A stretch of DNA of 64,000 bases, taken from contig CAVTRY010000011.1 in assembly GCA_963737265.1 (NCBI GenBank), positions 1,088,001-1,152,000 on the forward strand, read 5' to 3'. The position numbers were made by a program, and so were the translations under genes. The DNA is from an uncultured delta proteobacterium (lineage in GTDB: Bacteria > Myxococcota_A > Polyangia > Fen-1088). Shown here piece by piece: positions 16,590 through 64,000 of the stretch; within the stretch, counting starts at the first letter, position 1, and each line of letters begins with the position of its first letter. The notes below the pieces were generated by a model. It saw nothing but the letters and a program-made list of their open reading frames with translations, searched no databases and was not told the origin of the DNA.

Positions 16590-17528
16590 CTAGCCCTCGG
16601 TCGAAAACGGAGCCAGGATGGTGCCTGGTGGGATGCGGTGCCCCGCCAGGAGTGCCTGGGCGAGCATGCGCTTGCGACCTGGCATTTGAAGCTCGGCGAA
16701 GGCGAGTGCGCCCTCGCCGCAGGCTACCGCGAGACCCGCGGGGACGAGACCTAGGACCTCGCCCGGTCTTCCCGAGCCGGCGACCAACGTAGGCCGAAAG
16801 ACCTTGGTGGGCGCGCCAGCCACAACGACGGTCGCTCCGGGCCACGGGTCAACTCCGCGCGCCTGCGCGGACACGCTCGGAGCTGATTGCCCGAAGTCGA
16901 GCAGACCATCTTCCTTTTTCAGCAATGGCGCGAAGGTCGCGGCTGCGTGGTCCTGCGGCTGCAAAACGACGGTTTCCGCGCCGATCCGCGGAAGGGTTTC
17001 CGCCAGCAACCGTGCCCCGAGCGGCGCCAGGCGGTCGGCCAAAGATCCTGCCGTGTCGTCGTCCCTGATTGCATCCTTGGCAAGAGCCGCGACCGGTCCC
17101 GTGTCGAGTCCCTCTTCCATACGCATGATCGTCACGCCGGTCGTGTGCTCGCCCCGGATGACCGCCCACTGAATCGGTGCCGCGCCCCGAAACTTGGGCA
17201 GGATTGAGGCATGCACATTCCACGGGCCGAGCCGGGGTACGGCGAGAAGGTCGGGCGGAAGAATTCGGCCGTAGGCAACGACGACGAACAAGTCGGGCTC
17301 AAGCGCCATGAGCTCGCGGGCCAGTGCGCCATCACGAAGTTTGGTCGGCTGAAAGACCGGAAGCCCGCGCTGGCTCGCCAGTACCTTGACCGCCGGGGCC
17401 TGAACCTTTCCGCCTCGACCCGCCGGACGATCGGGCTGGGTGACGACGGCGACCACGTCGTGGTGATCGGCCACCGCCACAAGCGATGGAACGGCAAAGT
17501 CGGGCGAGCCGAAAAAAACGATTCGCAC
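16590..17528 (-). CDS. fmt: methionyl-tRNA formyltransferase
   Basis: FFGSPDFA, VTQPDRPAGRG, VVAYGRIL, NVHASILPKFRGAAPIQ, GLDTG. Confidence 0.96.
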   Translation of the reverse strand: MRIVFFGSPDFAVPSLVAVADHHDVVAVVTQPDRPAGRGGKVQAPAVKVLASQRGLPVFQPTKLRDGALARELMALEPDLFVVVAYGRILPPDLLAVPRLGPWNVHASILPKFRGAAPIQWAVIRGEHTTGVTIMRMEEGLDTGPVAALAKDAIRDDDTAGSLADRLAPLGARLLAETLPRIGAETVVLQPQDHAAATFAPLLKKEDGLLDFGQSAPSVSAQARGVDPWPGATVVVAGAPTKVFRPTLVAGSGRPGEVLGLVPAGLAVACGEGALAFAELQMPGRKRMLAQALLAGHRIPPGTILAPFSTEG

Positions 17529-17534
17529 GGCCGG

Positions 17535-18764
17535 TCAGCTTCGCGAAAAGCCCGCAGGCGATGGCGTTGCATCCCGAGACCCCGGCTCGCCGTCCGCGTC
17601 CGGGCCATGGGCCAAGTTGAACTCGTAGGCCGAGCGAAGGACTGGGGTCGAGAGCACGCGCAGTCCCTCGTCGAGCACGTCCTGGATGGTTTCAATCTGT
17701 TGCTTCAATTCATGCCACAGCTCCGGCCCGACGGTTTCGGGTGCGATTTCCTTGCGCAGCCTGGTGTAGGCCCGGCGGACGTCATTCGCGTCCGCGCGGC
17801 GATCGAGACCAAGCGACTGGAAGTAGTCGCTTTCCACGGCAAGCGCGTAGCGAGACTGAATGCGCTCGCGATCGATGCCAAGATCGCGCAAGCCCACCCG
17901 CGCGCCGTCCCGCACACTCGTGCCCGCGTCCACGGGCCGCAACACACCAAAGATGGATAATGTTAGTGCAATCCGCGCCACGGTTGCGTCCGAAAGGCCG
18001 CTGTCTCGAACCACGTCAACGAGCGAACGGATACCGTCGAACAGCGATGGCACACGCGTTTCCGCTTTTTCGGCGGTGGCGGCCAACTCGGACACCGAAT
18101 CCGCCGCGCCCGTAGAGTTGTCGAGCAGGAAGGCGATCTTACCCGTCCCCAAGCGCGCCGCGATCTTGTCGCTGGGGTAGTCGCGCGCCAAGCCCTCGCA
18201 GACGAGCACGATGGGATGGCGAAGCAAGCGGGTTCGGTCGGGCCCCGCGGTGACATTGGGATCGATTTGCCAGCGCCCCGTCGTCCAGGCGAAAAGCGAC
18301 AGAATGATGCTTTCGTAGTGGCGCCGAACGGCGGGCAAAAGCTCATCGCTGCGCAAGAAACCCAAGTCGACCAGAACGGCGCCGACCTTCCGTCCCGTGG
18401 CATCGACTACGCGCACAGTCTCTTTGTTCTGGCGGGCGTCGAGCACGCCTTCGCGGGTGAGCATGGCGAGCATTCGATCGGCGGCATCGTCGGAGGCTGC
18501 CATCACGGGGAGGCCGGCCTCGAAGTAGACCGACTTTTCCGCCTGCTCGCCGCGCACGCGCAGCCGGCCGGTCATGCCTTCAAGGTAGATTCGGCCGAGC
18601 AGCAACGGCATGTCGAGATCGGCCAAATCGCCCCCCACGGCCGGACCGCCGCCGACGACGATGGTGCGCAGCGTGCTCGACATCTCCGCGTCGAGAATGC
18701 CGTCGATGCTTTCGGCGAGCCTCCCGAGCAGCTTGGTCGAATCTTCATTGGTCGGCTTCATCAC
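17535..18764 (-). CDS. DUF4388-like protein with C-terminal J-domain-like region lacking HPD
   Basis: GDLADLDMPLLL...TGRL...KSVYFEAG N-terminal pattern; DYFQSLGL...DVRRAYTRL...APE...LSTPVLRSAY J-like C-terminus. Confidence 0.65.
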   Translation of the reverse strand: MMKPTNEDSTKLLGRLAESIDGILDAEMSSTLRTIVVGGGPAVGGDLADLDMPLLLGRIYLEGMTGRLRVRGEQAEKSVYFEAGLPVMAASDDAADRMLAMLTREGVLDARQNKETVRVVDATGRKVGAVLVDLGFLRSDELLPAVRRHYESIILSLFAWTTGRWQIDPNVTAGPDRTRLLRHPIVLVCEGLARDYPSDKIAARLGTGKIAFLLDNSTGAADSVSELAATAEKAETRVPSLFDGIRSLVDVVRDSGLSDATVARIALTLSIFGVLRPVDAGTSVRDGARVGLRDLGIDRERIQSRYALAVESDYFQSLGLDRRADANDVRRAYTRLRKEIAPETVGPELWHELKQQIETIQDVLDEGLRVLSTPVLRSAYEFNLAHGPDADGEPGSRDATPSPAGFSRS

Positions 18765-21025
18765 AGGACACTCTGCGGATCTACGTCTACCTCAAGACGC
18801 ACGTTGCGGGGAAGCGGCGCACGCTGCATCACTCGGGCCACGGTGAGTAGTTTCGCCCGATCTGTGCCGGACAGCCAGACTTGAAAGCGAGATCGCCCAC
18901 GCAGGCGGGCAATGGGCGCCTCGGACGGTCCCAAGACGCGAACGGCGGAATCCGCCACCGCTCGGGCACGCGACGCCACGGCGCTAGCACCCTCGCGGAC
19001 CGCTTTCTCATCGGGGCTATCCAAGCGCACGGCGACCATGCGCGAAAAGGGCGGATAGCCCGCAGCTTCCCGATGTGACAGCTCGTCCTGCACAAAACCT
19101 TCATAATCGTGCTGCCGCAGAAACTGAATTGCCGGATGCTCCGGACAGTAGGTCTGGACCACGATACGCCCAGCTCGTTCGGCCCGCCCTGCTCTTCCCG
19201 CCACTTGCTCCATGATTTGGAACGTGCGTTCGGCCGCGCGAAAATCCGGCAAATGGATTCCTTGATCGGGCTGCAGAATTCCGACCAAGGTCACGCCGCC
19301 AAAATCGTGGCCCTTGGTCACCATTTGCGTCCCGATGAGAATGTCGATTTCGCCGCGATGAACTTTGGCGAGCAACGCTTCCAGGCGCCCGCCGTCGGCG
19401 GTATCGCGGTCGAGCCGTGCCACCCGCGCTTGCGGGAAGCGCTCCCGCACCAGCGTCTCGACGCGCTCGGTGCCGCTGCCCATGCCTTCAAGGCTTGTTC
19501 CCTTGCACTGCGGACAAATCTCGCGGATTCGCTCCGCGCGACCGCAGTAATGACAGAGCAGGTGAGCGCGGGCTCGATGCAAGGTCAGCGATACCGCGCA
19601 CGAAGGGCAACGCATAACGTGTCCGCAGGCGCGACAGTGAACAAACGTGGAGAAGCCGCGCCGGTTGAGAAACAGGATAGTTTGCTCGCCTGCCGACAGC
19701 GCCTGCTCTACCGCCAGGGCCAAGGGTGGTGAAAGGATGCCATCGCCGCCGGGCGGGTGTCTGCGCAGGTCGATGACCTCGACGGGTGGCAGTGGCCGAT
19801 GGGCCGCCGCTGGGTTGGCCCGTGTCGGCAAGAGCAAGCGGGTGAACCGGCCCAGCACAACATTGCGATAGGTTTCAAGACAGGGTGTCGCGGAGCCCAG
19901 CACGGCGAGCACGTTGCCCTGGCGTGCCCGCATGACGGCGAGGTCGCGGGCGTGGTAGCGAAAGCCCTCCTCCTGTTTGAACGATCCGTCGTGCTCCTCG
20001 TCGACCACGATGACGGCCAGCTCGCGAACCGGGGCAAACACCGCGGACCGCGCGCCGACCGCGATGCCGACCTCGCCACGACGCAACCGCCGCCAGGCAG
20101 CAATTCGCTCGCCCGCCGGCAAGGCGCTGTGCAGGACCGCCACGTCGTCGCCGAAGCGGGCACGAAAGCGCGCGGCGAGCTGGGGTGTCAGCGCAATTTC
20201 GGGCACCAACACCAAGGCGCCGAGCCCACGCTTTCGCGCCTCGGCAATGAGGCGTAGGTAGACTTCCGTCTTGCCTGAGCCGGTGATCCCTTGCAGGACG
20301 AAGGTTCCATAGCCACCGCCCAGCGCCTGCAAAAGTGCGGCGAACGCAGCTTGCTGGTGTTCGTTCAGTTTCGGCAATGCCTCGCCGTCGAAGACCTGAC
20401 GATCGGGGCTGTCTTCGCCGGCCGTCTTTGTCCGCCGTTTGGCCCCTCGGATCGCGTCCGCAACCTCGACGAAACCGCGCTCAACGAGAAAGCTCACGCG
20501 TGCTGCCTCGGCCGACGACGTGCGTGCGAGACCAGTCATGCCGAGCGTCTTCGCCTTCTTCAACCTGGCCAACATCGCGCGATCGCCAGCATCGAGTGCC
20601 ATCGTGGCAAGCGCGGAGGCGCCGGTCGCTTCCGTCGCTCGCCGCCCTGCCTCAGTCAGGTGCACGCGCCGCGAAGACGAAGCGCGCTCTCCGCGCGGCA
20701 GCGCCGCACTCAATACCTCGCCGAGTGGAGCAAGGTAGTAGCTCGCTGCCCATCGGCACAGTTCGAGAACTTGCTCATCGAGTGCCGGTCCGTCGCCTAC
20801 GACCTCCGCGATTTCGCGCACGTCAACCGGCGCTTTCTCGGCGTAGCCGACGACGAATCCAGTGATGGTTCGCCGACCGAACGGCACAACGACCTGTGTT
20901 CCGAGGGGCGCGCGCGCGCCTGGCCGAGGATCGCGATAGGTGAACAGATCCGTCAAGGGAAGCGCAACGGCCACTTCGTACAAGACGCCGCCAGCTCCTC
21001 CGGGTCGCGGGCCGGAGCTACTCAT
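18761..21025 (-). CDS. priA: primosomal protein N' (replication restart helicase)
   Basis: GITGSGKTEVY, DEEH, LGSATP, CRAC/CPSC/CHYC/CPQC Zn motifs, GTQMVTKGHDF, QVAGRAGR. Confidence 0.97.
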   Translation of the reverse strand: MSSSGPRPGGAGGVLYEVAVALPLTDLFTYRDPRPGARAPLGTQVVVPFGRRTITGFVVGYAEKAPVDVREIAEVVGDGPALDEQVLELCRWAASYYLAPLGEVLSAALPRGERASSSRRVHLTEAGRRATEATGASALATMALDAGDRAMLARLKKAKTLGMTGLARTSSAEAARVSFLVERGFVEVADAIRGAKRRTKTAGEDSPDRQVFDGEALPKLNEHQQAAFAALLQALGGGYGTFVLQGITGSGKTEVYLRLIAEARKRGLGALVLVPEIALTPQLAARFRARFGDDVAVLHSALPAGERIAAWRRLRRGEVGIAVGARSAVFAPVRELAVIVVDEEHDGSFKQEEGFRYHARDLAVMRARQGNVLAVLGSATPCLETYRNVVLGRFTRLLLPTRANPAAAHRPLPPVEVIDLRRHPPGGDGILSPPLALAVEQALSAGEQTILFLNRRGFSTFVHCRACGHVMRCPSCAVSLTLHRARAHLLCHYCGRAERIREICPQCKGTSLEGMGSGTERVETLVRERFPQARVARLDRDTADGGRLEALLAKVHRGEIDILIGTQMVTKGHDFGGVTLVGILQPDQGIHLPDFRAAERTFQIMEQVAGRAGRAERAGRIVVQTYCPEHPAIQFLRQHDYEGFVQDELSHREAAGYPPFSRMVAVRLDSPDEKAVREGASAVASRARAVADSAVRVLGPSEAPIARLRGRSRFQVWLSGTDRAKLLTVARVMQRAPLPRNVRLEVDVDPQSVL

Positions 21026-22074
21026 GACCCAGATTCCTCGGTGTGCGCGACGCCGACAAGCAGTTCCGCAACCCTGTCGTAGAGGATCTCAGGGATCTCG
21101 CAGCCCTCCTCGACACCCTGGAGAGCACATGCGAGGTGATTGTCTTCGACGATCGGCACCTTGCTGGTCCGCGCGACATCTTCGATCTTCTGCGCGACCC
21201 GGCGCTCGCCTTTGACCAAAACCACCGGCGCTCCCTGGCCGGTGCGGTCGTAGCGGATGGTCGCCGCCAGCACGCCTCGTTCGACCACGACCAGATCGGC
21301 GCTTTCCACTTCGGCCAGTGCGTGCTGTTGCAAGATTTCACCGTGGAGACGCTGACGTTCCGCCCGGCGCGCGGGATCGCCTTCGTTTTCCTTGTGCTCT
21401 CGCCTTACCTCATCCCGACTCATGCGCAACGATTTCCTATGACGATGGATCTGCCATCCGTAGTCCACGCCGCCGAGCACCACCATAGCCACCGCCAATC
21501 GGAGCCCCAGGATATTTCCCATCTTGGCGATGGTCAGGAGAATCCGCGAGGCCCCTGCGCCACCTAGATGCACGATCTCGGGCGCCCAGGCGCGAAGCGA
21601 CCAATAGCCGACCAAGCCGACGACGGCAATCTTGAGCAGCTCTTTCGCCATTTCCACGCAGGCATCGCGCCCCACGAGTCGACCGCGCGAAGGAACGAGG
21701 CGATTCGTGTCCAACCGGACCCGCCCGAGCGAGAAGAAAGCGCGAGTCTGTGCGAGACCAACGAATAACACGATGGCGACCGTGGCTGTCACGGGAGCAA
21801 CGAGCGCCATGAGCCACTCTCTTAGGCAGGACTGAACCACGCCGGAGAACGACGTTGCGCTGGCAGCCACACCCAGGGTCATGCGCATGGTTGCGACCAA
21901 TCCACCGGCCCAAGACGGACCCGCCGCAATGAGAGCCACGCATGCCGCAAGCGCGCCAAATCCAGAATTGAGATCGCGACTGAGCGCGATCTGCCCCTCG
22001 TGGCGCGCCCGTTCCAGTCGTCGCTGGGTGGGCGCCTCGGTCTTTTCCTCCAGCGCCGGATCAGCCATGGGCAC
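21022..22074 (-). CDS. flhB: FlhB/SctU family type III export switch protein, lacking NPTH
   Basis: EKTEAPTQRRLERARHEGQ, four hydrophobic segments, LRMSRDEVRREHKENEGDP, YDRTGQGAPVVLVKG, VPIVED..LA..L, EIPE.LY..VAELL. Confidence 0.9.
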   Translation of the reverse strand: MPMADPALEEKTEAPTQRRLERARHEGQIALSRDLNSGFGALAACVALIAAGPSWAGGLVATMRMTLGVAASATSFSGVVQSCLREWLMALVAPVTATVAIVLFVGLAQTRAFFSLGRVRLDTNRLVPSRGRLVGRDACVEMAKELLKIAVVGLVGYWSLRAWAPEIVHLGGAGASRILLTIAKMGNILGLRLAVAMVVLGGVDYGWQIHRHRKSLRMSRDEVRREHKENEGDPARRAERQRLHGEILQQHALAEVESADLVVVERGVLAATIRYDRTGQGAPVVLVKGERRVAQKIEDVARTSKVPIVEDNHLACALQGVEEGCEIPEILYDRVAELLVGVAHTEESGS

Positions 22075-22095
22075 GCTGGCGAGTCATCGGGCGCA

Positions 22096-22914
22096 TCATC
22101 GTCCCAGCCGCGCGGCTGCTTGGAAAATGCCGAGAAATTCCTGAAACGTGTGTTGCATGGCCACGTCCAATGTTGCCAGCCCCACCAGCACGGCGCCGAC
22201 GCCCAACAGCGCTTTGAGCGGCATGCCGACGAAGTAGAGTGGAATCTGCGGAGCCGCACGCCCGAGCACCCCAAGCGCGATGTCGGCAAGCAACGACGCA
22301 ACGACCACGGGAGCACACAGGCCAATCGCGGTCTCGATGAGCTTGCCTGACGCACTGATAGTCAGAATGGCCAGCGCGTGCGTGGACTCGCGAAACGGTA
22401 TCTGCGGGGTCAGCGGGATTGCCTCATAGCTGCGTGCCAGAGCCAACGCAACCGTGCCAACACCTCCAATTTCATGGAACACGACGATGAACAGCAGGAG
22501 CATGACGACACCGAGAGGGCTGCTCACCGTCTCGCCTGCCGGGGAGATTGCCTCGGCGAGATTGGCTCCGCGCAGAACGTCCGTCAGCTGTCCCGCGGCT
22601 TCGGCTGCACGAAACGCGCAGGAACAGACGAATCCTATCGCTGTCCCGACGACTGCCTCGCGCCCAACCAGAAGCAACCAGATGAGAATGCCACCCGTGG
22701 GTGGATGCGCAGAAAGCATGGGAAAGCAAAGCGCCGAAAGGCCAATTCCCAGGGCAAGGCGAACCTGGGCCGGCAACGTGGGACCGCCAAATGCCGGAAT
22801 CGACCACACCAGGGGAACGGTTCGCGCGGCACCCAACGCCACAATCAGGAGATCTTGCAGGAGATCTTGCAAGAGATGTTGATCGAGGCTTCCGGGTAGC
22901 AAGGCGGCAGGCAC
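22096..22914 (-). CDS. fliR: FliR/SctT family export gate protein
   Basis: P.FG...P..VR, AGQLTDVLRG, SYEAIP, DIALGVLGRAAPQIPLYFVGMPLK; start trimmed to GTG 22914. Confidence 0.88.
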   Translation of the reverse strand: MPAALLPGSLDQHLLQDLLQDLLIVALGAARTVPLVWSIPAFGGPTLPAQVRLALGIGLSALCFPMLSAHPPTGGILIWLLLVGREAVVGTAIGFVCSCAFRAAEAAGQLTDVLRGANLAEAISPAGETVSSPLGVVMLLLFIVVFHEIGGVGTVALALARSYEAIPLTPQIPFRESTHALAILTISASGKLIETAIGLCAPVVVASLLADIALGVLGRAAPQIPLYFVGMPLKALLGVGAVLVGLATLDVAMQHTFQEFLGIFQAAARLGR

Positions 22915-22915
22915 C

Positions 22916-23194
22916 CTAGCGGATCGTGGGAATTGCGAGCAACAGAGCCTGCGCGAAACGCAAGACTTGCGCACCCAGCAACGGCCCCATCGCAAGCAGA
23001 ACCAAGGCGACCGCCACCAGCTTCGGTACAAAGGCCAGAGTCTGGTCGTGAATCTGCGTCGCTGCTTCCAGAATGCCGACCACGAGCCCCACGGCCAAGC
23101 TTGCAAGAAGCGGCGGCGCGGACACCAGAAGCACCAACATCAGCCCCTCCCGAACCGCGCGCAAAATGACATCCGGAGCCCCGCTGCTAAACAT
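22916..23194 (-). CDS. fliQ: FliQ/SctS family export gate protein
   Basis: SAPPLL...GLVVGILEAATQIHDQTLAFVPKL. Confidence 0.9.
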   Translation of the reverse strand: MFSSGAPDVILRAVREGLMLVLLVSAPPLLASLAVGLVVGILEAATQIHDQTLAFVPKLVAVALVLLAMGPLLGAQVLRFAQALLLAIPTIR

Positions 23195-23909
23195 AACTTT
23201 CCACCAGTCCCCTCAAGAGAAGCTGCCAGCCGTCGGCGAGCACGAAAAGCAGCAGCTTGAAGGGCAGCGACACCGTTGTCGGCGAGAGCATGTGCATGCC
23301 CAGGGCAAGAAGCAGGTTGGATATGACCATGTCCACGACCAAAAACGGAATGAACAGCAGGAATCCGATCTCGAAGGCTCTGCGCAACTCCGTCGTGAGA
23401 AACGCCGGAACCGCGACCAGGAAATCACGATCCGTGATGCCTGCCCTATCCGCCGGCGCCCGCATACGCAGGGCCAGATTGTGGAACAGGTTTCGATCCC
23501 TCGAAGTCCCGTGCTTGAGCAAGAATTCGCGCAGGGGTTCCTTGGCCTTTTCCACCGCCGAGCCCAGCGCCTCTAGACTTTGCCTGCTCAGGAGCTCCGC
23601 GCCGACTCCCTGACCAAGCACCGGCTCGACGGCCCGAAACATCCGCTCCCCCGTTGGCGCCATGACATAGACAGTGAGGATCAAGGCGAGACCGGTAATG
23701 ACCTGCGAGGGTGGAATATTGGGCGTGCCAAGCGCGCTCCTCAAGATCGACAGCACCACGGCGATCTTCACGAAGCTGGTCATGAGCAGCAAAGCGAATG
23801 GCAGAATCGACAGCGCCGCCAGGGCGACAAGAAACAATGCCGGCCGGGAAGAAAATCCCTGCGTCCTGTCCAGGTTCGCAGCAGCCACGCTTGCGACCAG
23901 CGCAGTCAT
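23187..23909 (-). CDS. fliP: FliP/SctR family export gate protein
   Basis: MTSFVKIAVVLSILRSALG...PP, PAFLTTELRRAFEIGFLLFIPFLVVDMV, LGMHMLSP...LPFKLLLFVLADGW. Confidence 0.93.
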   Translation of the reverse strand: MTALVASVAAANLDRTQGFSSRPALFLVALAALSILPFALLLMTSFVKIAVVLSILRSALGTPNIPPSQVITGLALILTVYVMAPTGERMFRAVEPVLGQGVGAELLSRQSLEALGSAVEKAKEPLREFLLKHGTSRDRNLFHNLALRMRAPADRAGITDRDFLVAVPAFLTTELRRAFEIGFLLFIPFLVVDMVISNLLLALGMHMLSPTTVSLPFKLLLFVLADGWQLLLRGLVESYV

Positions 23910-24271
23910 CGTCTGCCCCGCTTTAGCACCCGGACCAAGACGTCAGGGAAAGACGATCCTGTCTGGTCGCCGGCGCCTGCAGCCGGAATGCTTGGCAACG
24001 CCGACTTCTCGATCTCGGCCAGCATCGTCATTGGACCGTCCCCGACACCGACCAAGAAACAGCGCCCGCCCGACTCGATGAGGTAGACCGCTCGGCGAGC
24101 CTCCAGGGCACATCGGCCGATGAGGCGAATGGAACTGTCTCCCCGCCCGACACCACGTCGCGCCAGCCAGCGCAACACTACGAACGCGGCTAAGCAGACG
24201 ATACCCAGGGAAACAAAAGAAAGCGCTAGAGAACTTCCTAGTCCTGGAAGGTCAGACGCTGGCGCATCCAT
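23906..24271 (-). CDS. fliO: FliO-like protein
   Basis: Single TM helix then IRLIGRCALEARRAVYLIESGGRCFLVGVG...LAEI pattern; immediately upstream of and overlapping fliP. Confidence 0.75.
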   Translation of the reverse strand: MDAPASDLPGLGSSLALSFVSLGIVCLAAFVVLRWLARRGVGRGDSSIRLIGRCALEARRAVYLIESGGRCFLVGVGDGPMTMLAEIEKSALPSIPAAGAGDQTGSSFPDVLVRVLKRGRR

Positions 24272-24277
24272 GATCCG

Positions 24278-24307
24278 GAATTACCGCCATCGGGCATTCC
24301 GTGTCAA
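24278..24307 (-). promoter_or_regulatory. candidate sigma70 promoter for the fliO cluster
   Basis: Minus strand TTGACA (24307-24302), then 16-18 nt to a weak -10 GGTAATT a few nt before the fliO ATG. Confidence 0.45.
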
Positions 24308-24328
24308 CCGGGCAATTCACCTCGGGTG

Positions 24329-24958
24329 CTACTCGCCGCCCCGGCTTCGTCCGGCCCGCTTCATGGTCGCAGCCGACTTCGCGGGTGCGCCTGCCCCTAG
24401 ATTCTTCTTCACTTTCGGGGCCGTCGCTGCTTTCGTCTTGGCTTTGGGCTTGGCTTCGCCGGCGGCCGCCGACTTCTCCTTGCCCTTTGCCTTCGCTTCG
24501 CCTGGTTCCTTGCCCTTGGGAGACGGCTTCGCACCGGTCTCGCCGGGCTCACCCGGGATAAGTTCCAGCAAAGCCATGGGGGCTGCGTCGCCCGGACGCT
24601 GGGCCATCTTCACAATGCGGGTGTAACCGCCATGGCGAGAGAGAAAGCGTGGTCCGATTTCCTCGAACAGCTTCATGACCGCATCGCGATCGCGAACCAC
24701 CCGCAACGCCATCCGCACCGCATGTACCATCCGGGCGCGCTCTTCATCCGTCCGCTTGTCGGGCTTCTTGGTGAGAATTCCGCCCAATCGGCGAGCCCAG
24801 GTAATTGCTCGCTCTGCGAGACGACGAATCTCCTTGGCCTTGACCTCCGTGGTGCGAATGCGCTCGTAGGTGAGCAACGCCGCCACCATGTTGGAGAATA
24901 GCGCCTTGCGGTGCGCCGCCGTTCGGGAAAGATGTAGTCCAGCTCTCTTGTGTCGCAT
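24329..24958 (-). CDS. rplQ: 50S ribosomal protein L17 with basic C-terminal extension
   Basis: MRHKR...HRKAL...RIRTTEVKAKE...GGYTRIVK...GDAAPMA. Confidence 0.96.
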   Translation of the reverse strand: MRHKRAGLHLSRTAAHRKALFSNMVAALLTYERIRTTEVKAKEIRRLAERAITWARRLGGILTKKPDKRTDEERARMVHAVRMALRVVRDRDAVMKLFEEIGPRFLSRHGGYTRIVKMAQRPGDAAPMALLELIPGEPGETGAKPSPKGKEPGEAKAKGKEKSAAAGEAKPKAKTKAATAPKVKKNLGAGAPAKSAATMKRAGRSRGGE

Positions 24959-25032
24959 GTTGGCCTAGGTACTCGTTGGCTCTGCCTGTTTACAATTCCT
25001 GCCTGTTGTCGCCTGGCTCTGCTTGAGAACGC

Positions 25033-26079
25033 CTAGGCCTTCTTCGGCGGACCGTCGCCCGGCCAGCCTTCCAGCTTCATGCCGAGAGAGAGCCCCATCG
25101 CAGCCAGGATCTCTTTGATTTCCTTGAGCGACTTGCGTCCAAAGTTCTTGGTCTTGAGCATGTCGGATTCGGTCTTCTGCACCAGCTCGCCGATGTAGCG
25201 GATGTTGGCATTCTGCAAGCAGTTTGCCGAGCGAACCGACAATTCCAAATCATCGACCGACTTCCACAAGTTCTCGTTGAGCTTCTGTTGCTCTTCGGAA
25301 ACCGTCGCTTCCGGGGCCGGCTCCGCGCCCTCCTGGAAGTTGATGAAGATAGAAAGCTGGTCCTTGAAGATCTTGGCCGCGTAAGCAACGGCGTCCTCGG
25401 GACTCACCGTGCCGTTCGTCCACACTTCGAGGGTCAAACGGTCGTAGTCGGTCTGCTGGCCAACGCGCGCGTTGGTCACCGCGAAATTGACCTTGTGAAC
25501 CGGCGAGAAAAGAGAATCGATGGGCACCACGCCGACCGGCATGTTCGGCTGTTTGTTGCGGTCGGCTGGCACGTAGCCGCGCCCCACCCCGATCTCCAAC
25601 TCCATGCGAACCTTGGCCCCCTTGGAGCAGGTCATGACGTGATGGTCTGGGTTCAAAATCTCGATGCCTTCCGGGCACTGAATATCCTTGGCGGTGACCT
25701 TTCCTTCCCCATCCTTGTCAATCCGCACCGTGCGCGGCTTGCCGTCGTGGGAAAGGATGATCACTTCCTTCAGGTTCAGCACGATGTCCGTAACATCCTC
25801 GGCCACCTCGGGCAACGAGGTGAACTCGTGCACGGCGCCCTCGATTTTCACGGAGGTGATAGCCGCGCCTTGCAGCGATGACAACAACACCCGGCGGATG
25901 CCGTTGCCTATGGTCGTTCCGAAGCCGCGCTCAAGCGGCTCACAGGTAAACTTCCCATAGGTTGGCGTCAACGATTCGACATCCACCTCAAGCTTGCGCG
26001 GCTTGATGAGGTCTCGCCAATTCCTCGCAATAAACGTAGACGGCGTGACAGCGGCGGTCTGGGCACTAGCGCTCGACAT
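25033..26079 (-). CDS. rpoA: RNA polymerase alpha subunit
   Basis: [32 protein letters not shown]. Confidence 0.98.
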
Positions 26080-26130
26080 CCTGTTCTCCTGTTAGATTCT
26101 AGGAATCAAAAAACTTCGCGGCGGCGTTCG

Positions 26131-26760
26131 CTACTTAGAATAAAGTTCGACGACGAGCTGCTCGCGAACCGTCATCGTGAGGTCTTCTCGCGACGGCAAC
26201 GTCACGAGCTTGCCCTGAAAATTGTCCTTGTCGAGTTGCAGCCATTTGGGCACGCCTCGACGATCAACGGCACCCAGGCTCTCAAGGATACGGGTCACCT
26301 TCCGCGACGGCTCGCATACCACGATGCTGTCGTTCATACCGCAAAGAAAGGACGGAATGTTCACTTTCTTCCCGTTGACCAGGAAATGACCGTGACGAAC
26401 CAACTGCCTTGCCTCGGCGTGATCGGACGCGAAACCAAGACGGTACACCACGTTGTCGAAACGACGTTCCAGCAATTGCAGCAGGTTTTCGCCGGCAACC
26501 CCCTTCATGGAAGTTGCCTTCTTGTAGTAGCCGCGGAACTGGCGCTCTGCTAGCCCATACATGCGCTTCAGCTTCTGCTTCTCTCGCAATTGCGAGCCAT
26601 AGTTGGAAAGTTTTCTTCGTCGCGCCTGCCCATGCTGGCCAGGAGCGTACGCTCGTCGTTCGTAACCACATTTGTCGGTGTAGCAGCGGTCGCCCTTCAG
26701 GAAGAGCTTGGTGTCTTCCCGGCGACATAGGCGGCAAACCGGACCGGAATACTTCGCCAT
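26131..26760 (-). CDS. rpsD: 30S ribosomal protein S4 (Zn-binding type)
   Basis: CRLCRRE...C...[20 protein letters not shown]. Confidence 0.98.
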
Positions 26761-39000: not shown

Positions 39001-40197
39001 TTACGCAATAATCTTGGTAACGACGCCGGCGCCAACGGTCTTGCCGCCTTCGCGTATTGCGAAACGCAGACCCTCTTGGCACGCAATCGGTGTAATGAGC
39101 GTGATTTCCATGCTCACGTTGTCTCCAGGCATCACCATCTCCATCCCGTCGGGCAACTTCACGTCGCCAGTCACGTCCGTCGTCCGGAAGTAGAACTGCG
39201 GCCGGTATCCCTTGAAAAACGGCGTGTGCCGCCCGCCCTCTTCCTTCTTCAGAACGTAAACCTCTCCCATGAAGTTCTTGTGCGGCGTGATCGATCCCGG
39301 CTTCGCCAACACCTGACCACGCTCGATGTCTTCTCGCTTCGTTCCGCGCAACAGCGCCCCAACGTTGTCCCCCGCCCGACCTTCGTCCAGCAGCTTTCGG
39401 AACATTTCCACCCCGGTCACCGTCGTCTTCGCCGTGTCCTTGAACCCCACGATCTCAACTTCCTCTCCCACCTTGACGATCCCGCGCTCGATACGCCCGG
39501 TCACCACCGTTCCACGACCTGAAATCGTGAACACGTCTTCAATGGGCATCAGGAATGGCTTGTCCGTCTCTCGCTTCGGCTCCGGTATGAAACTGTCGAG
39601 TGCGTCCATCAGTTTCGCGATCGACCCTTCGCCGATTTCCGACGGATCCCCTTCCAGCGCCTTGAGCGCACTCCCGCGAATGATTGGCGTCGTGTCGCCG
39701 GGAAACTGGTACTTCGAAAGCAACTCCCGCAGCTCTAGCTCGACCAGGTCCATCAGCTCCGCGTCTTCCTTCGCCACCATGTCCACCTTGTTCAGGTACA
39801 CCACGATCGAAGGAACACCCACCTGCCGCGCCAACAGAATGTGCTCCCGCGTCTGCGGCATCGGTCCGTCCGGCGCCGACACCACCAACACCGCCCCGTC
39901 CATCTGCGCTGCGCCCGTGATCATGTTCTTGATGTAGTCCGCGTGCCCAGGGCAATCCACGTGCGCGTAGTGCCGCTTCTCCGTCGCGTATTCCACGTGC
40001 GCAATCGCGATCGTGATGCCCCGCTCTCGTTCTTCGGGCGCCTTGTCTATCTGGTCGTACGCCGTGAACGTCGCCAGGTTTCGCTTCGCCAGCGACTTCG
40101 TGATCGCCGCCGTCAGCGTCGTCTTGCCATGGTCCACGTGTCCGATCGTCCCTACGTTCAGGTGCGGCTTATTTCGTACGAATTTTTCTTTGGCCAT
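39001..40197 (-). CDS. tuf: elongation factor Tu (str operon copy)
   Basis: [18 protein letters not shown]; 398 aa. Confidence 0.99.
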
Positions 40198-55875: not shown

Positions 55876-57072
<1,197 letters not shown>

Positions 57073-60635: not shown

Positions 60636-61130
60636 ATGGCGGTAGACATCGAAAGCTTCTATCGGCTTCACGGACCGATGGTTCTGCGTCGGTGCCGCCG
60701 TCTCCTGCGGGACGAAGCAAAGGCGGTGGATGCCATGCACGACGTTTTCGTTGAAATTTTGCGCCGCAAGGACACCCTGGACGCAAGCGCGCCCGCCGGG
60801 CTGCTGCTGACCACGGCGACCCACGTCTGCCTCAATCGGCTACGCGGCGATCGCCGCAAACCAGAGGATTCCGACGACGAGATGATGTTTCACATCGCGG
60901 CGCTCGGAAGCGGGGCGAACCCCGAAACACGCACGCTGGCTGGCCGGATCCTGGACCGACTGTTTGCCGGCCAGCCCGAGTCGACCCGCCTCATCGCCGT
61001 TCTCCACTATGTCGATCGCCTGACGCTCGAAGAAGTGGCCAGCGAGGTTGGCCTGTCCGTGTCCGGCGTACGCAAGCGTCTGCGAACGCTCAAAGAACGC
61101 TTGCCAGCCGCGGTGGAGGCAGCGTCGTGA
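60636..61130 (+). CDS. ECF sigma factor
   Basis: 164 aa; sigma2 (AVDAMHDVF...VCLNRLR) and sigma4 (LTLEEVASEVGLSVSGVRKRL); GGAG-like SD. Confidence 0.9.
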   Translation: MAVDIESFYRLHGPMVLRRCRRLLRDEAKAVDAMHDVFVEILRRKDTLDASAPAGLLLTTATHVCLNRLRGDRRKPEDSDDEMMFHIAALGSGANPETRTLAGRILDRLFAGQPESTRLIAVLHYVDRLTLEEVASEVGLSVSGVRKRLRTLKERLPAAVEAAS

Positions 61131-61918
61131 AGCCCACCGACGAAAGAGCTCCTGACTGGCTAGTCGAACGATTGGCCGCGGGCGAATTGCCCGAAGCGCG
61201 GGCGAACGATCTGCGCGCCCGACTGCACGCGCGCGGCGAAGAACACCGCATGTCCGCTCTTGTCTCCTCCAACGCAGAGATTTTGGCTGCGCTGCCGCCG
61301 GAACGCGCGCTGCCCGAGATTCGGCGCCGAGCAGACCGCCAGCCACGGAATGTGCCGCGGCCTACCCGCTTGTGGTGGACGCTGTCGATGGCCACGGCTG
61401 GCGTCGCAGCCTTCGCCATGATTCTTGCCGTGCAAGAGCACAAGGGATCGCGAGCGCCGGATCAGGTTTCAGAAGATCCGCTTTCTGAATCGGAACAGGC
61501 CGAGGGCATCGGCATCAAAGGCGACCTCAAACCCGTGCTGCGCATTTATCGCAAGTCCGCGGCGGGCGCGGAGGCGCTGCGACCCGGCGCAAAGATTTAC
61601 CAAGGCGACGCTTTACAGATCCGCTATGTGGCCGCCGGGCGGCGTTTCGGGATCATCGCTTCGATCGATGCCCGCGGAACCATCACGCTTCATCTGCCGG
61701 AAACACCGGGCCGGGCCGTTGCGCTCGAACGCGACGGAGAGCGAGCCCTTCCTCACGCCTACGAGCTCGACGATGCCCCTGGCTTCGAACGATTCGTGTT
61801 CGTGACCGCGGACTCGCCTTTCGATTCTGCCGACGTGACCCGCGCGCTCGGAAGCGGTGGCGCCCTGCCCGCTCCGCTCACTTCGTTCGACCTTACCTTG
61901 AAGAAGGAAAGACCATGA
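61127..61918 (+). CDS. putative single-pass membrane anti-sigma factor with extracytoplasmic DUF4384-like domain (ActD-like)
   Basis: N-terminal ERLAAGEL helical domain, one TM (LWWTLSMATAGVAAFAMILAV), GIKG motif, GDALQIRY...AYELDDAPGFERF; overlaps the sigma stop. Confidence 0.7.
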   Translation: MKPTDERAPDWLVERLAAGELPEARANDLRARLHARGEEHRMSALVSSNAEILAALPPERALPEIRRRADRQPRNVPRPTRLWWTLSMATAGVAAFAMILAVQEHKGSRAPDQVSEDPLSESEQAEGIGIKGDLKPVLRIYRKSAAGAEALRPGAKIYQGDALQIRYVAAGRRFGIIASIDARGTITLHLPETPGRAVALERDGERALPHAYELDDAPGFERFVFVTADSPFDSADVTRALGSGGALPAPLTSFDLTLKKERP

Positions 61919-64000
61919 CCCGCGCCATCCTATTTTTAGCCGCTGTGCTCGGATTCGCCGGACCGTCCCTGGCCGCCGAGTCTCCCGCCGAGGCAACCGC
62001 GCTCCGCCGGTTCGCCCTCGTGGCGTCGTCGAACGACGGCGGACCAGGCCGCGCAAGGCTGCGTTTTGCCAACTCCGACGGCGACTCGGTTGCGCGCATC
62101 CTCGCCAGTCTGGGCGGCGTGCACGCGGACGACCTGCTCGTCGTCCGCGACGCCACGCGAGCCCGTTTGCTCCAGGCCTTTGGCGAGCTCAAGACCGAGA
62201 TCGGGCGCGAACGGCGGCCGTTCGTGCGCCGCGAGGTGTTCGTGTACTACTCGGGACATTCGGACGAAGAAGGTCTTCTTCTCGGAGAAGAACGCGTCGG
62301 CTACCGCGAGTTACGCCAGTGGATCGATGGTGTGGGCGCCGACGTCCGCATCGCCATTCTCGACTCGTGCGCCTCGGGGACACTCATTCGGCTTAAAGGC
62401 GGCGTCCATCGCGCACCCTTTCTTAGCGATGTTTCCACCCAAGCGCGCGGCCACGCCTTTCTTACCGCCAGCTCCGCCGACGAAGCCGCGCAGGAGTCGG
62501 ACCGCGTGGGCGCCGCCTTCTTCACCCACTACCTGCTTTCCGGCATGCGCGGCGCTGCCGACGCCAACCACGACCAGCGCGTGACCCTCAACGAAGCCTA
62601 CCAGTTCGCCTACAACGAGACCCTGCAGCGAACGGAAACCTCGCGCGCGGGTGCGCAACATCCCGCCTACGATATTCAGCTCGCCGGCACCGGCGATCTC
62701 GTGATGACCGACTTGCACGCCTCCGGCTCGCGCCTGGTGCTGGCGCGCGAGCTTTCCGGCCGCATCTACATCCGCGACGCTGGCGGTCGTCTGGTGGTGG
62801 AATTGCACAAAGAACCCACCTATCCCGTTCGAGCTCGGTCTTGAACCTGGTTCGTACCGCGTCGTTCTCGACAGTGACGGCCGCATTTCCGAGGGTACGT
62901 TCGATCTCGCGGGCAACGGCCGCGTGGAGCTATCTGCCGACCAGCTCAAACCCGTCGCGGCGCTCGTCAGCACCCGGCGTGGCGACGAGCCGACCGGTGT
63001 GCTGCCCGCGGCTTCCCCGTCCGTGGCGGCCGAGCCAGAGACAAATCGACACTACCGCCACGTCGGTTTCGATCTCGTTCTGGCGCCAGGCTTCCGCATG
63101 TCCGGGGACACCGGCCTTCCGGTCGAGCACGGATTTGTCCTGGGCGTCGTCGGCCATTCCGATAGCCTGCGCGGCGCCCAGCTTTCGCTCGCCGGCAACA
63201 TCGCCCAGGATGGCGTGGTCGGTGCCCAGGTCGGCGGCGCCTTCGCGCTCAGCTATGGACCCGTTCTCGGCGCCCAGCTGGCGGCCTACAACATGGCGAT
63301 GAGCGGCCTGCGCGGCGCCCAAGTCGGCTGGATTGCGAACGTCGCGCGCGGTCCCGTGCGAGGCGCGCAAGTCAGCATGGTCAATGTGGCCAATGGCCCC
63401 ACTCGCGGCGCGCAAGTTGGATTGGTCAACGTGGAAAAGGGCGACATCAACGGCGCCCAGATCGGCCTCGTCAACGTCGATAGGCCCGCCGCCGAATCAC
63501 GAGGTGCTCAGATCGGCTTGGTCAACGCCACCGGGGGAACGGGCGCCCGCACGGCTTCGAGCGTGGGCCTTGTGAATGTGGCGACCAAGCAGCACGGCGT
63601 CCAGGTCGGATTGGTCAACGTCGTCGACGAGATCGACGGGGTTCAGGTCGGGCTGGTCAGCTTCGCACGCAAGAACAACGGCGCATCCATCGCGCTCGTC
63701 CCCATCGTTCTCGACGGCGACAATCGCTTGACCCTGGGCTGGAGCGACGCCAGCGCTGGCAATCTCGGCTTCAAGCTCGGAACCCGCCGGTTCTACGTCG
63801 CGGCTGCCTTGGGCATCACGCGCGACATCGACCGCGACGGGCATCGCGAGTATTCGAGCACGTTTGGACTTGGCGTTCATATCATCCCGCGCGGGAATCC
63901 GTTCTTCCTCGATGTGGACGCATCGAGCGCGAGCTTCGCGACCCTCGCCCACGCCCACGACGAGCAGCGCTGGATCCACAGCCTGCGCCTGCAAGTCGGC
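61915..64000 (+). CDS. exported caspase-like (C14) peptidase with GAQxGLVN repeats; frameshift at ~62829; runs off the window end
   Basis: Signal peptide; YYSGH and ILDSC dyad; +1 frame from 62831 is open to 64000 (ELGLEPGSYRVVL...~11 repeats...alternating beta-strand pattern). Confidence 0.82.

Follow-up and report, generated by a model that had tools for sequence, protein, structure and literature searches.

Needle-less type III secretion systems (T3SSs) are known from myxobacteria, where the 'Myxo' group of non-flagellar T3SSs (NF-T3SSs), which has neither a secretin nor a needle, is encoded in clusters, as short and long loci in Cystobacterineae (Abby & Rocha 2012, PMC3459982). What such needle-less myxobacterial systems do is still poorly understood; they are thought to resemble the stage intermediate between flagella and injectisomes. 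T3SS* of Myxococcus xanthus functions with the Kil pilus (Herrou et al., PMC12075869), and FliO homologs are present in Myxococcota NF-T3SSs, both M. xanthus systems included (PMC12403147). T3SS homologs have been reported mainly in Myxococcales, Myxococcaceae, or Myxococcia, by surveys in which homologs of the M. xanthus clusters were scored or detection relied on gene clusters (PMC10196010, PMC11821767, bioRxiv 10.64898/2026.07.10.737566). Scattered systems are listed for Chlamydiales and a few others, and constitutive expression has been suggested to relax selection for clustering in them (PMC3459982). In searches of the literature, no listed title or abstract opening described a dispersed Polyangia T3SS or a natural SctU lacking the NPTH motif; supplements may hold relevant presence/absence tables. 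Here we describe a type III export gate, composed of a FliO-like gene, sctR, sctS, sctT, and sctU, that lies between rplQ and priA in a 64-kb stretch of DNA (the window, C11:1088001-1152000) from an uncultured Polyangia-type bacterium (genome G000; 6.55 Mb in 25 contigs; completeness, 99.49%; contamination, 7.6%). We put the probability that this gate is one piece of a dispersed, needle-less, Myxococcota-type NF-T3SS at about 0.78. On our best reading, the genes of this system are scattered over the chromosome and fixed inside housekeeping neighborhoods.

A six-frame open reading frame (ORF) listing combined with Pfam searches showed that all five gate ORFs are intact and lie on the minus strand. 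The gate and its neighbors are as follows, in window coordinates:

24329-24958, minus strand: rplQ, which ends the ribosomal alpha operon and flanks the gate upstream (PF01196, 108 bits)
23906-24271, minus strand: FliO-like small membrane protein, 121 aa (PF04347, 49 bits, cutoff 22; TIGR03500, 52.2, slightly below the cutoff of 55.25)
23187-23909, minus strand: SctR (FliP family), export-gate pore subunit (PF00813, 221.5 bits)
22916-23194, minus strand: SctS (FliQ family) (PF01313, 89.8 bits)
22096-22914, minus strand: SctT (FliR family) (PF01311, 153.6 bits, profile positions 3-229 of 230)
21022-22074, minus strand: SctU (FlhB family) (PF01312, 270.3 bits, full length)
18761-21025, minus strand: priA, downstream flank of the gate (PriA domains)
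17535-18764, minus strand: DUF4388 and DnaJ-domain gene, after priA (PF14332, 54 bits; DnaJ weak, 19.6 bits, below the cutoff)

The four gate families (PF00813, PF01313, PF01311, and PF01312) were matched at full length above the Pfam gathering cutoffs, in the order R-S-T-U. The gene junctions are operon-like: the FliO-like stop and the sctR start share an ATGA, sctS starts within the 3' end of sctR, and the sctU stop overlaps the priA ATG. The mechanically called SctT ORF extends to 23106, and the GTG at 22914, 1 nt past the sctS stop, is the likely start. The first-pass annotation of the window had described five tightly packed, intact gate genes between rplQ and priA, and these results confirm that description. 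The DUF4388-DnaJ gene is part of the same tightly packed string, its start overlapping the priA stop (GTGA), and it follows priA in relatives too. The 57-nt spacer between rplQ and the FliO-like gene holds one perfect TTGACA without an acceptable -10 hexamer. Scans of window positions 17000-26500 returned 0 promoter-like sites and 10 terminator-like sites, compared with 9.3 expected from shuffles.

The gate was typed against NCBIfam models. SctR scored over the Sct cutoffs (NF009438 EscR/YscR/HrcR, 251.3 against 179; TIGR01102 yscR, 219.8 against 208.6) and under the flagellar equivalog cutoff (TIGR01103 fliP, 203.1 against 217.45). SctS, SctT, and SctU were also under the flagellar equivalog cutoffs (fliQ, 83.7 against 88.9; fliR, 120.2 against 168.6; flhB, 225.4 against 349.25), and they were below the Sct cutoffs too, with Sct and flagellar models scoring alike. 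Trees were then built from concatenated R+S+T (54 rows, 589 columns) and R+S+T+U (54 rows, 924 columns) alignments by IQ-TREE quick searches under the LG+C20 posterior mean site frequency (PMSF) model, with Shimodaira-Hasegawa-like approximate likelihood ratio test (SH-aLRT) support only; loci without the needed genes and many near-duplicate family loci were omitted. The flagellar clade (SH-aLRT, 100 and 99) contained the Salmonella Fli reference, the G000 flagellar gate, all flagellar-context loci, and Synergistia and Vulcanimicrobiota loci from metagenome-assembled genomes (MAGs). The injectisome references Asc, Rhc, and Spa, three references only, formed their own clade (100 and 99), which excluded the window. 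A third assemblage held the window, its family, other Polyangia-titled loci, and family f25, which has stand-alone O-R-S-T-U gates. Two Acidobacteriota-titled lineages were placed near this assemblage. The first-pass annotation had given the window genes their flagellar (fli/flh) names; these are wrong, because SctR passes the SctR models and fails the FliP model and because the set falls outside the flagellar clade. Judged from model scores and trees, the gate is non-flagellar, and Sct names apply to it.

Terriglobia- and Pyrinomonadaceae-titled (Acidobacteriota) R-S-T gates (L115, L127, and L128) branch near the Myxococcota-type group and away from flagella. Gene transfer, a shared system of older origin, or mis-binning of contigs could explain these placements.

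G000 carries two FliP-family and two FHIPEP genes, one of each inside a complete flagellar regulon at C11:~61-105 kb, about 1 Mb from the window gate. This regulon comprises FliL, FliM, FliN, a 436-aa FliO, FliP, FliQ, FliR, FlhB, FlhA, FlhF, a MinD/ParA-type ATPase gene, and FliA, with the flagellar gate itself at C11:~64.8-69.7 kb. The regulon also contains the rod genes, FlgH, FlgI, FlgM, FlgK, an FlgL-like gene, flagellin, FliD, FliI, FliG, and FliF. A second flagellum was considered and rejected: FliG is present in a single copy, and the rod genes and all examined flagellar genes are at C11:61-105 kb. The first-pass annotation had held that its view of the gate would fall if a complete flagellar set elsewhere in the genome grouped with these genes. 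Such a set exists, but it has its own FliOPQR-FlhB-FlhA and groups apart from the window genes.

The partners of the gate in the predicted system, together with a neighboring sigma factor, are encoded on other contigs:

C22, between hisD and proA: SctV, 719 aa (TIGR01399, 698, cutoff 692.25; FlhA model, 603, cutoff 772)
C16, overlapping the sctN start: SctL/FliH-like gene (PF02108, 63 bits)
C16, with a HIT-family gene next: SctN (TIGR02546, 609.4, cutoff 604.75; Walker A GSGVGKST and Walker B LLMMDS intact)
C7, beside pspA, holB, a PSP1 gene, and metG: SctJ, 263 aa (LVLGC lipobox-like motif and C-terminal hydrophobic stretch)
C7, directly upstream of sctJ: FliA/WhiG-like (sigma-28-like) factor (FliA/WhiG model, 150.6 bits, below the cutoff of 189.6)
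C21: SctQ-like gene, 355 aa (FliMN_C, 27.8 bits, cutoff 23.8)

The flagellar paralogs of the same genome type the opposite way (FliP, 239.6 against a cutoff of 217.45; FlhA, 797.3 against 772.1). The SctQ-like gene was missed by the whole-genome family scan and was reached via orthologs in relatives. Genome-wide searches for FHIPEP, FliI/YscN, YscJ_FliF, FliMN_C, secretin, FliG_C, and rod families gave no further T3SS family match in the 64-kb window, so that the first-pass statement that nothing else T3SS-like is visible there holds. Two readings of the gate had been offered at that stage. The first, one piece of a split reduced T3SS, is supported by SctV, SctL-SctN, SctJ, and the SctQ-like gene at four other places, and the second, a repurposed minimal translocon, is not supported when read as one that works without SctV or an ATPase, as G000 encodes both.

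A 149-aa ORF lies between hisD and sctV (C22:215770-216219), and its counterpart in relative G001 is 52% identical. When it was tried as the stalk protein SctO/FliJ, it had no Pfam match below an E value of 0.01, and an Atlas search gave just clusters with a score of 0.84; the ORF may encode a small accessory protein of the T3SS or may not be a gene at all. C21:8185-10961, which is divergent from the SctQ-like gene, encodes two proteins with a zinc ribbon and an FHA domain as well as a 120-aa ORF with an anti-sigma-type zinc finger (zf-HC2). The FHA domains of these two proteins barely pass Yop-YscD_cpl (33.9 and 36.2 bits; cutoff, 33.2), and the first protein is 88% identical in G001. The two may possibly be SctD-like or regulatory partners.

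Of 40 relatives compared, 24 are from the same family as G000. Orthologs of SctR (58 to 81% identity), SctN (70 to 82%), and SctJ were found in all 24 same-family genomes, SctV in 23, and the SctQ-like gene in 21 (25 to 40% identity). Synteny was compared at 80 loci, 61 of which had an R gene of at least 60% identity; some of these are the same contigs as the relatives' genomes and so are not independent. Conservation of the rplQ-gate-priA order, a check proposed in the first pass, was observed: rplQ is upstream in 39 of the 42 orthologous loci with at least 2.5 kb of upstream sequence, and priA is downstream in 34 of the 44 with at least 6.5 kb of downstream sequence. In the same sets, the FliO-like gene is upstream of R in 42/42 and sctU is downstream in 44/44, and SctT was recovered in nearly all orthologous loci with its own hidden Markov model (HMM). 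Neither rplQ nor priA was nearby in any of 19 more distant loci. Since kin are not independent, these counts show retention within the lineage rather than repeated events.

The neighborhoods of the partner genes are also kept. hisD is beside sctV in G001, G014, and G021; sctL-sctN is kept in the same three genomes, with the HIT gene alongside in two of them. The sigma factor, sctJ, holB, and the PSP1 gene are together in G001, G014, G021, and G027, the last from another family, and pspA joins them in the first three. In all four of these relatives, the pieces are dispersed, on separate contigs or hundreds of kilobases apart. One contig of G021, for example, carries N at 1.12 Mb, R at 2.01 Mb, and J at 3.09 Mb, with V encoded on a different contig. 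The SctQ-like gene is usually 11 to 24 kb from sctN in relatives and on a separate contig in G000.

Rod-family matches were found in none of four relatives (G001, G009, G017, and G027); G000 has five. Each of these four genomes has a single FliP-, FlhA-, ATPase-, and FliF-family copy, which is the Sct one. These four genomes are MAGs of 90 to 100% estimated completeness, and rod genes are accordingly scored there as 'not found.' The dispersed set is inherited vertically across the family, with or without a flagellum. A different role for such a set would be as a membrane platform rather than as a classical secretion system, for instance in membrane nanotubes, in whose formation the T3SS export core has been implicated (PMC9380563). 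The set is dominated by core-complex genes, as this role would predict, yet a dedicated ATPase, a stator, an SctJ ring, and an SctQ-like gene are conserved with the gate. This conservation indicates active substrate export, and we regard a role for the core complex only as very unlikely.

Several relatives depart from the window arrangement. Extra ORFs spanning 1 to 3 kb lie between sctT and sctU in several family members (L071, L075, L103, L068, L109, and others), and none of 15 such inserted ORFs had a Pfam match. Loci titled Sandaracinaceae, Polyangiales, Polyangiaceae, or Haliangiales, and those of some further class members (L121, L122, L119, L113, L124-L126, L129, L130, L043, L045, L050, and L054), lack S, T, and U genes within 6.5 kb of sctR, whether or not the FliO-like gene accompanies it. 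In these lineages, the gate itself seems to be divided still more. Large genomes of the phylum that were sampled (f45 and f41) had loci in a flagellar context or partial R/S pairs. Family f25, which belongs to another class, has stand-alone (O)-R-S-T-U gates (L156, L157, L159, and L161) that lack V, N, and J within 6 kb and adjoin neither rplQ nor priA. Given these gates, dispersal extends beyond the family of the window.

The ratio of nonsynonymous to synonymous substitutions (dN/dS) was estimated by the Nei-Gojobori method for the three closest pairs (dS, 0.12 to 0.66); pairs with a dS above 1 were saturated and were not relied on. The ratios were 0.10 to 0.22 for the FliO-like gene, 0.07 to 0.15 for sctR, 0.07 to 0.17 for sctS, 0.18 to 0.31 for sctT, and 0.36 to 0.42 for sctU, compared with 0.09 to 0.26 for priA. 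All five gate genes are under purifying selection, which is most relaxed in SctU. Identities between G000 and same-genus genomes were then calculated from global alignments, with the flagellar paralogs as an internal control. Identity within the genus was 86% for FliP versus 77 to 81% for SctR, 83 to 86% for FliQ versus 75 to 77% for SctS, 79 to 80% for FliR versus 57 to 60% for SctT, and 79 to 80% for FlhB versus 43 to 47% for SctU. R, S, N, and J are conserved as much as priA.

SctU has ERGV, from residue 265, where the N|PTH autocleavage motif aligns. The aligned motif is QSGV or QDGV in same-genus genomes and DGDR, EPGV, DPGV, and similar in other sublineages. NPDH is retained in most other lineages of the clade, and the G000 flagellar FlhB has NPTH. 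Among 58 distinct SctU/FlhB sequences, a set that includes a few flagellar-type loci, 28 had NP.H, 5 had NP with another ending, and 25 had no NP. The remainder of the SctU C-terminal domain is recognizably conserved, with 40 to 53% identity in the lineages that lost NP versus 65 to 76% among those that keep NPDH. With the Asn-Pro of NPTH missing, SctU of this genus is predicted to be unable to autocleave.

These data bear on whether the set is the remnant of a T3SS that was lost and is now decaying, or else an extra gate that serves the flagellum. Such an origin would account for an SctU without its cleavage motif, for the faster change of SctU and SctT than of their flagellar paralogs, for several standard parts that were not found, and for the Polyangia-titled loci in which sctR has no S, T, or U gene within 6.5 kb. 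Relaxed selection of the kind that the first-pass annotation had linked to a relic is not supported by dN/dS values of 0.07 to 0.42 across five intact ORFs. R, S, N, and J match priA in conservation, and the system is kept in four relatives without rod-gene matches. It is not a flagellar spare, because it has its own SctV, SctN, and SctJ. A relic or spare gate is highly improbable on this evidence.

Searches for further parts of an injectisome gave negative results in G000. The only two secretin genes belong to a PilM/N/O-PilQ (type IVa pilus) cluster and to a type II secretion system (T2SS) E/F/G/J/K cluster, so that no T3SS secretin SctC was found. The needle family (SctF, PF09392) had no match at an E value of 0.1 or less, and the model of the large inner ring SctD (TIGR02500) gave only N-terminal FHA-level matches of at most 34.7 bits against a cutoff of 86; short, fast-evolving proteins may escape both searches. 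This make-up, an export apparatus and ATPase complex without a secretin, needle, or translocon, is in general that of the needle-less M. xanthus T3SS* (PMC12075869, PMC3459982). The set could thus be the counterpart of T3SS*, lysing prey with another envelope machine, and the FliO homologs of the M. xanthus T3SSs (PMC12403147) and the Myxococcota host lineage are consistent with this possibility. T3SS*, however, is recruited by the Tad-like Kil pilus (PMC12075869), and no Tad-type secretin was found among the two secretins of G000, in which other Tad genes were not searched. The window system is moreover wired into ribosomal, replication, and amino-acid neighborhoods and not into a dedicated inducible cluster. 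A predation machine of this kind remains a reasonable suggestion, though not the one that we would expect to prove correct.

Regulatory genes of a flagellar type are found at C23:525768-528526, in the following order:

first: sigma-54 activator with a FleQ-like receiver
second: sigma-70-family factor with regions 2/3/4, 265 aa
third: FlgM-like ORF, 62 aa (PF04316, 26.3, cutoff 25)

The order of sigma factor followed by FlgM-like ORF is repeated in G001 and G009, both without rod-gene matches, and looks there like a regulatory cascade of flagellar type that was retained without a flagellum. The FlgM-like ORF occurs in 17/24 same-family genomes and in 12/12 of the genus. Together with the sigma-28-like factor directly upstream of sctJ, a pair kept in G001, G014, G021, and G027, the trio raises the idea of a regulatory checkpoint. 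The reduced T3SS would chiefly export the FlgM-like anti-sigma factor, so that the sigma-28-like regulon is turned on only once the machine is assembled or active; the main output would be gene regulation and not effector delivery, which refines rather than excludes the dispersed NF-T3SS reading. FlgM in flagella is a late substrate that requires cleaved FlhB, and a late substrate fits badly with a non-cleaving SctU. In addition, export of the FlgM-like protein is pure inference, its FlgM score is barely above the cutoff, and searches with this query or family did not recover it from G027 or from 7 of the 24 family genomes, where the gate is present. Such a checkpoint is conceivable, and we rate it as unlikely.

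The rest of the window consists of rpoB/C, the S10, spc, and alpha ribosomal string, and metabolic genes. Pfam was run on 37 of the 63 greedy window ORFs (8 + 29) and, apart from the gate, identified housekeeping genes only; the other 26 lie in the ribosomal-protein runs and were covered by the genome-wide family searches alone. Two tuf (EF-Tu) copies, at 39001-40197 (after fusA) and 55876-57072 (near nusG/secE), have equal Pfam scores and represent the usual tufA/tufB duplication. At 60636-62844 on the plus strand, three consecutive genes encode an extracytoplasmic function (ECF)-type sigma factor, an uncharacterized 263-aa ORF, and a protein with a caspase domain (Peptidase_C14).

Homology to FliPQR/FlhB/FlhA and SctRSTUV suggests how a dispersed NF-T3SS of this composition might work. 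The FliO-like protein would help SctR assembly, and R, S, T, and U would form a pore inside the SctJ ring. The SctV ring and SctL-SctN would push unfolded substrates over the inner membrane, driven by the proton-motive force and ATP. Because needle, secretin, and SctD were not found, the most likely end point of export is the periplasm or hand-over to another envelope machine. Non-cleaving FlhB and YscU mutants are the basis for expecting a locked export mode: as SctU of this genus has lost the Asn-Pro of NPTH, the substrate-class switch is probably disabled and the machine locked in a single export mode. The leading ideas on its role are that the system serves to lyse prey as T3SS* does, that it exports the FlgM-like factor, or that it does both. 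A more elaborate account would have an ancient needle-less T3SS dissolved into the Polyangia housekeeping genome, its gate appended to the alpha operon and coupled to priA. It would act as a constitutive inner-membrane export and regulatory device (e.g., with FlgM-like anti-sigma export gating a sigma-28-like regulon) that is independent of flagella and the Kil pilus and that, in this genus, has a non-cleaving SctU without class switching. We consider this account speculative and, taken whole, improbable.

Several points weigh against interpreting the gate as part of a dispersed NF-T3SS. SctJ scores 159.5 with TIGR02544, slightly below the equivalog cutoff of 161.95, and the SctQ-like gene is very divergent, both in its FliMN_C score and in its identity among relatives. 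The partner loci are on contigs other than that of the window in a genome whose contamination is estimated at 7.6%, although relatives carry the same pieces. The backbone between the three tree groups is weak (63 to 91 SH-aLRT, from quick searches), with long branches flagged. The trees contain no named M. xanthus or Anaeromyxobacter sequence, so that the grouping with published 'Myxo' loci is inferred rather than shown. Over the same genome pairs, SctU and SctT evolve far faster than the flagellar paralogs do, and this change could be the start of switch-subunit decay. Finally, a stalk (SctO/FliJ), SctD, SctI, and SctK were not recognized in G000, so that the machine, once assembled, may depart from the textbook form.

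Throughout a family of uncultured Polyangia-type genomes, a core set under selection is retained, and the published survey methods would under-call it because it is scattered. If the dispersed NF-T3SS reading is correct, the host range of this ancestral-type system is wider than clustered loci have indicated. The set would be the second natural case of a fully dispersed T3SS, after Chlamydiae, and its natural SctU variants without an autocleavage site would bear on the purpose of the switch in a needle-free machine.

Like canonical injectisomes, the system has an SctR, in the window, and an SctV and SctN, elsewhere in G000, that pass Sct equivalog or subfamily models; unlike them, it falls outside the Asc/Rhc/Spa clade, and a dedicated SctC, a needle SctF, and SctD were not found in G000. 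The flagellar FliOPQR-FlhB-FlhA gate has the same families, the order O-P-Q-R-B, and a FliO-type gene, whereas the window set fails the FliP equivalog cutoff, falls outside the flagellar clade, is unlinked to flagellar genes, and is kept in relatives without rod matches. Chlamydial injectisomes also have NF-T3SS genes spread over several loci (PMC3459982). Chlamydiae, in contrast, inject eukaryotic cells and have retained the secretin, the needle, and the translocon, none of which was found in G000, and their lineage is unrelated to the window host.

The closest match is the 'Myxo' NF-T3SS group, including T3SS* (MXAN_2434-2464) and T3SS(2) (MXAN_5643-5654) of M. xanthus. Both it and the window system have a Myxococcota host, an export apparatus, an ATPase, and the small inner ring SctJ (core RSTUV plus N and J), without a secretin, needle, or flagellar rod and hook genes. 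Both have a FliO homolog encoded with the apparatus and lie outside the flagellar and canonical injectisome clades, and in both, vertical inheritance and purifying selection argue for function. FliO was held in the first-pass annotation to be absent from injectisomes, a view now outdated by the FliO homologs of Myxococcota NF-T3SSs (PMC12403147). The two differ in that the published systems are clusters, as short or long loci or, for T3SS*, one large cluster, whereas the window system occupies at least five places, each in a conserved housekeeping neighborhood. They differ also in the host, here an uncultured Polyangia-type family with some members that have a full flagellum, and in the SctU cleavage motif, which is lost in the genus of the window. 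On the best reading, the system is of a known kind, a needle-less Myxococcota T3SS, and what is new is its genomic arrangement and its sequence variant.

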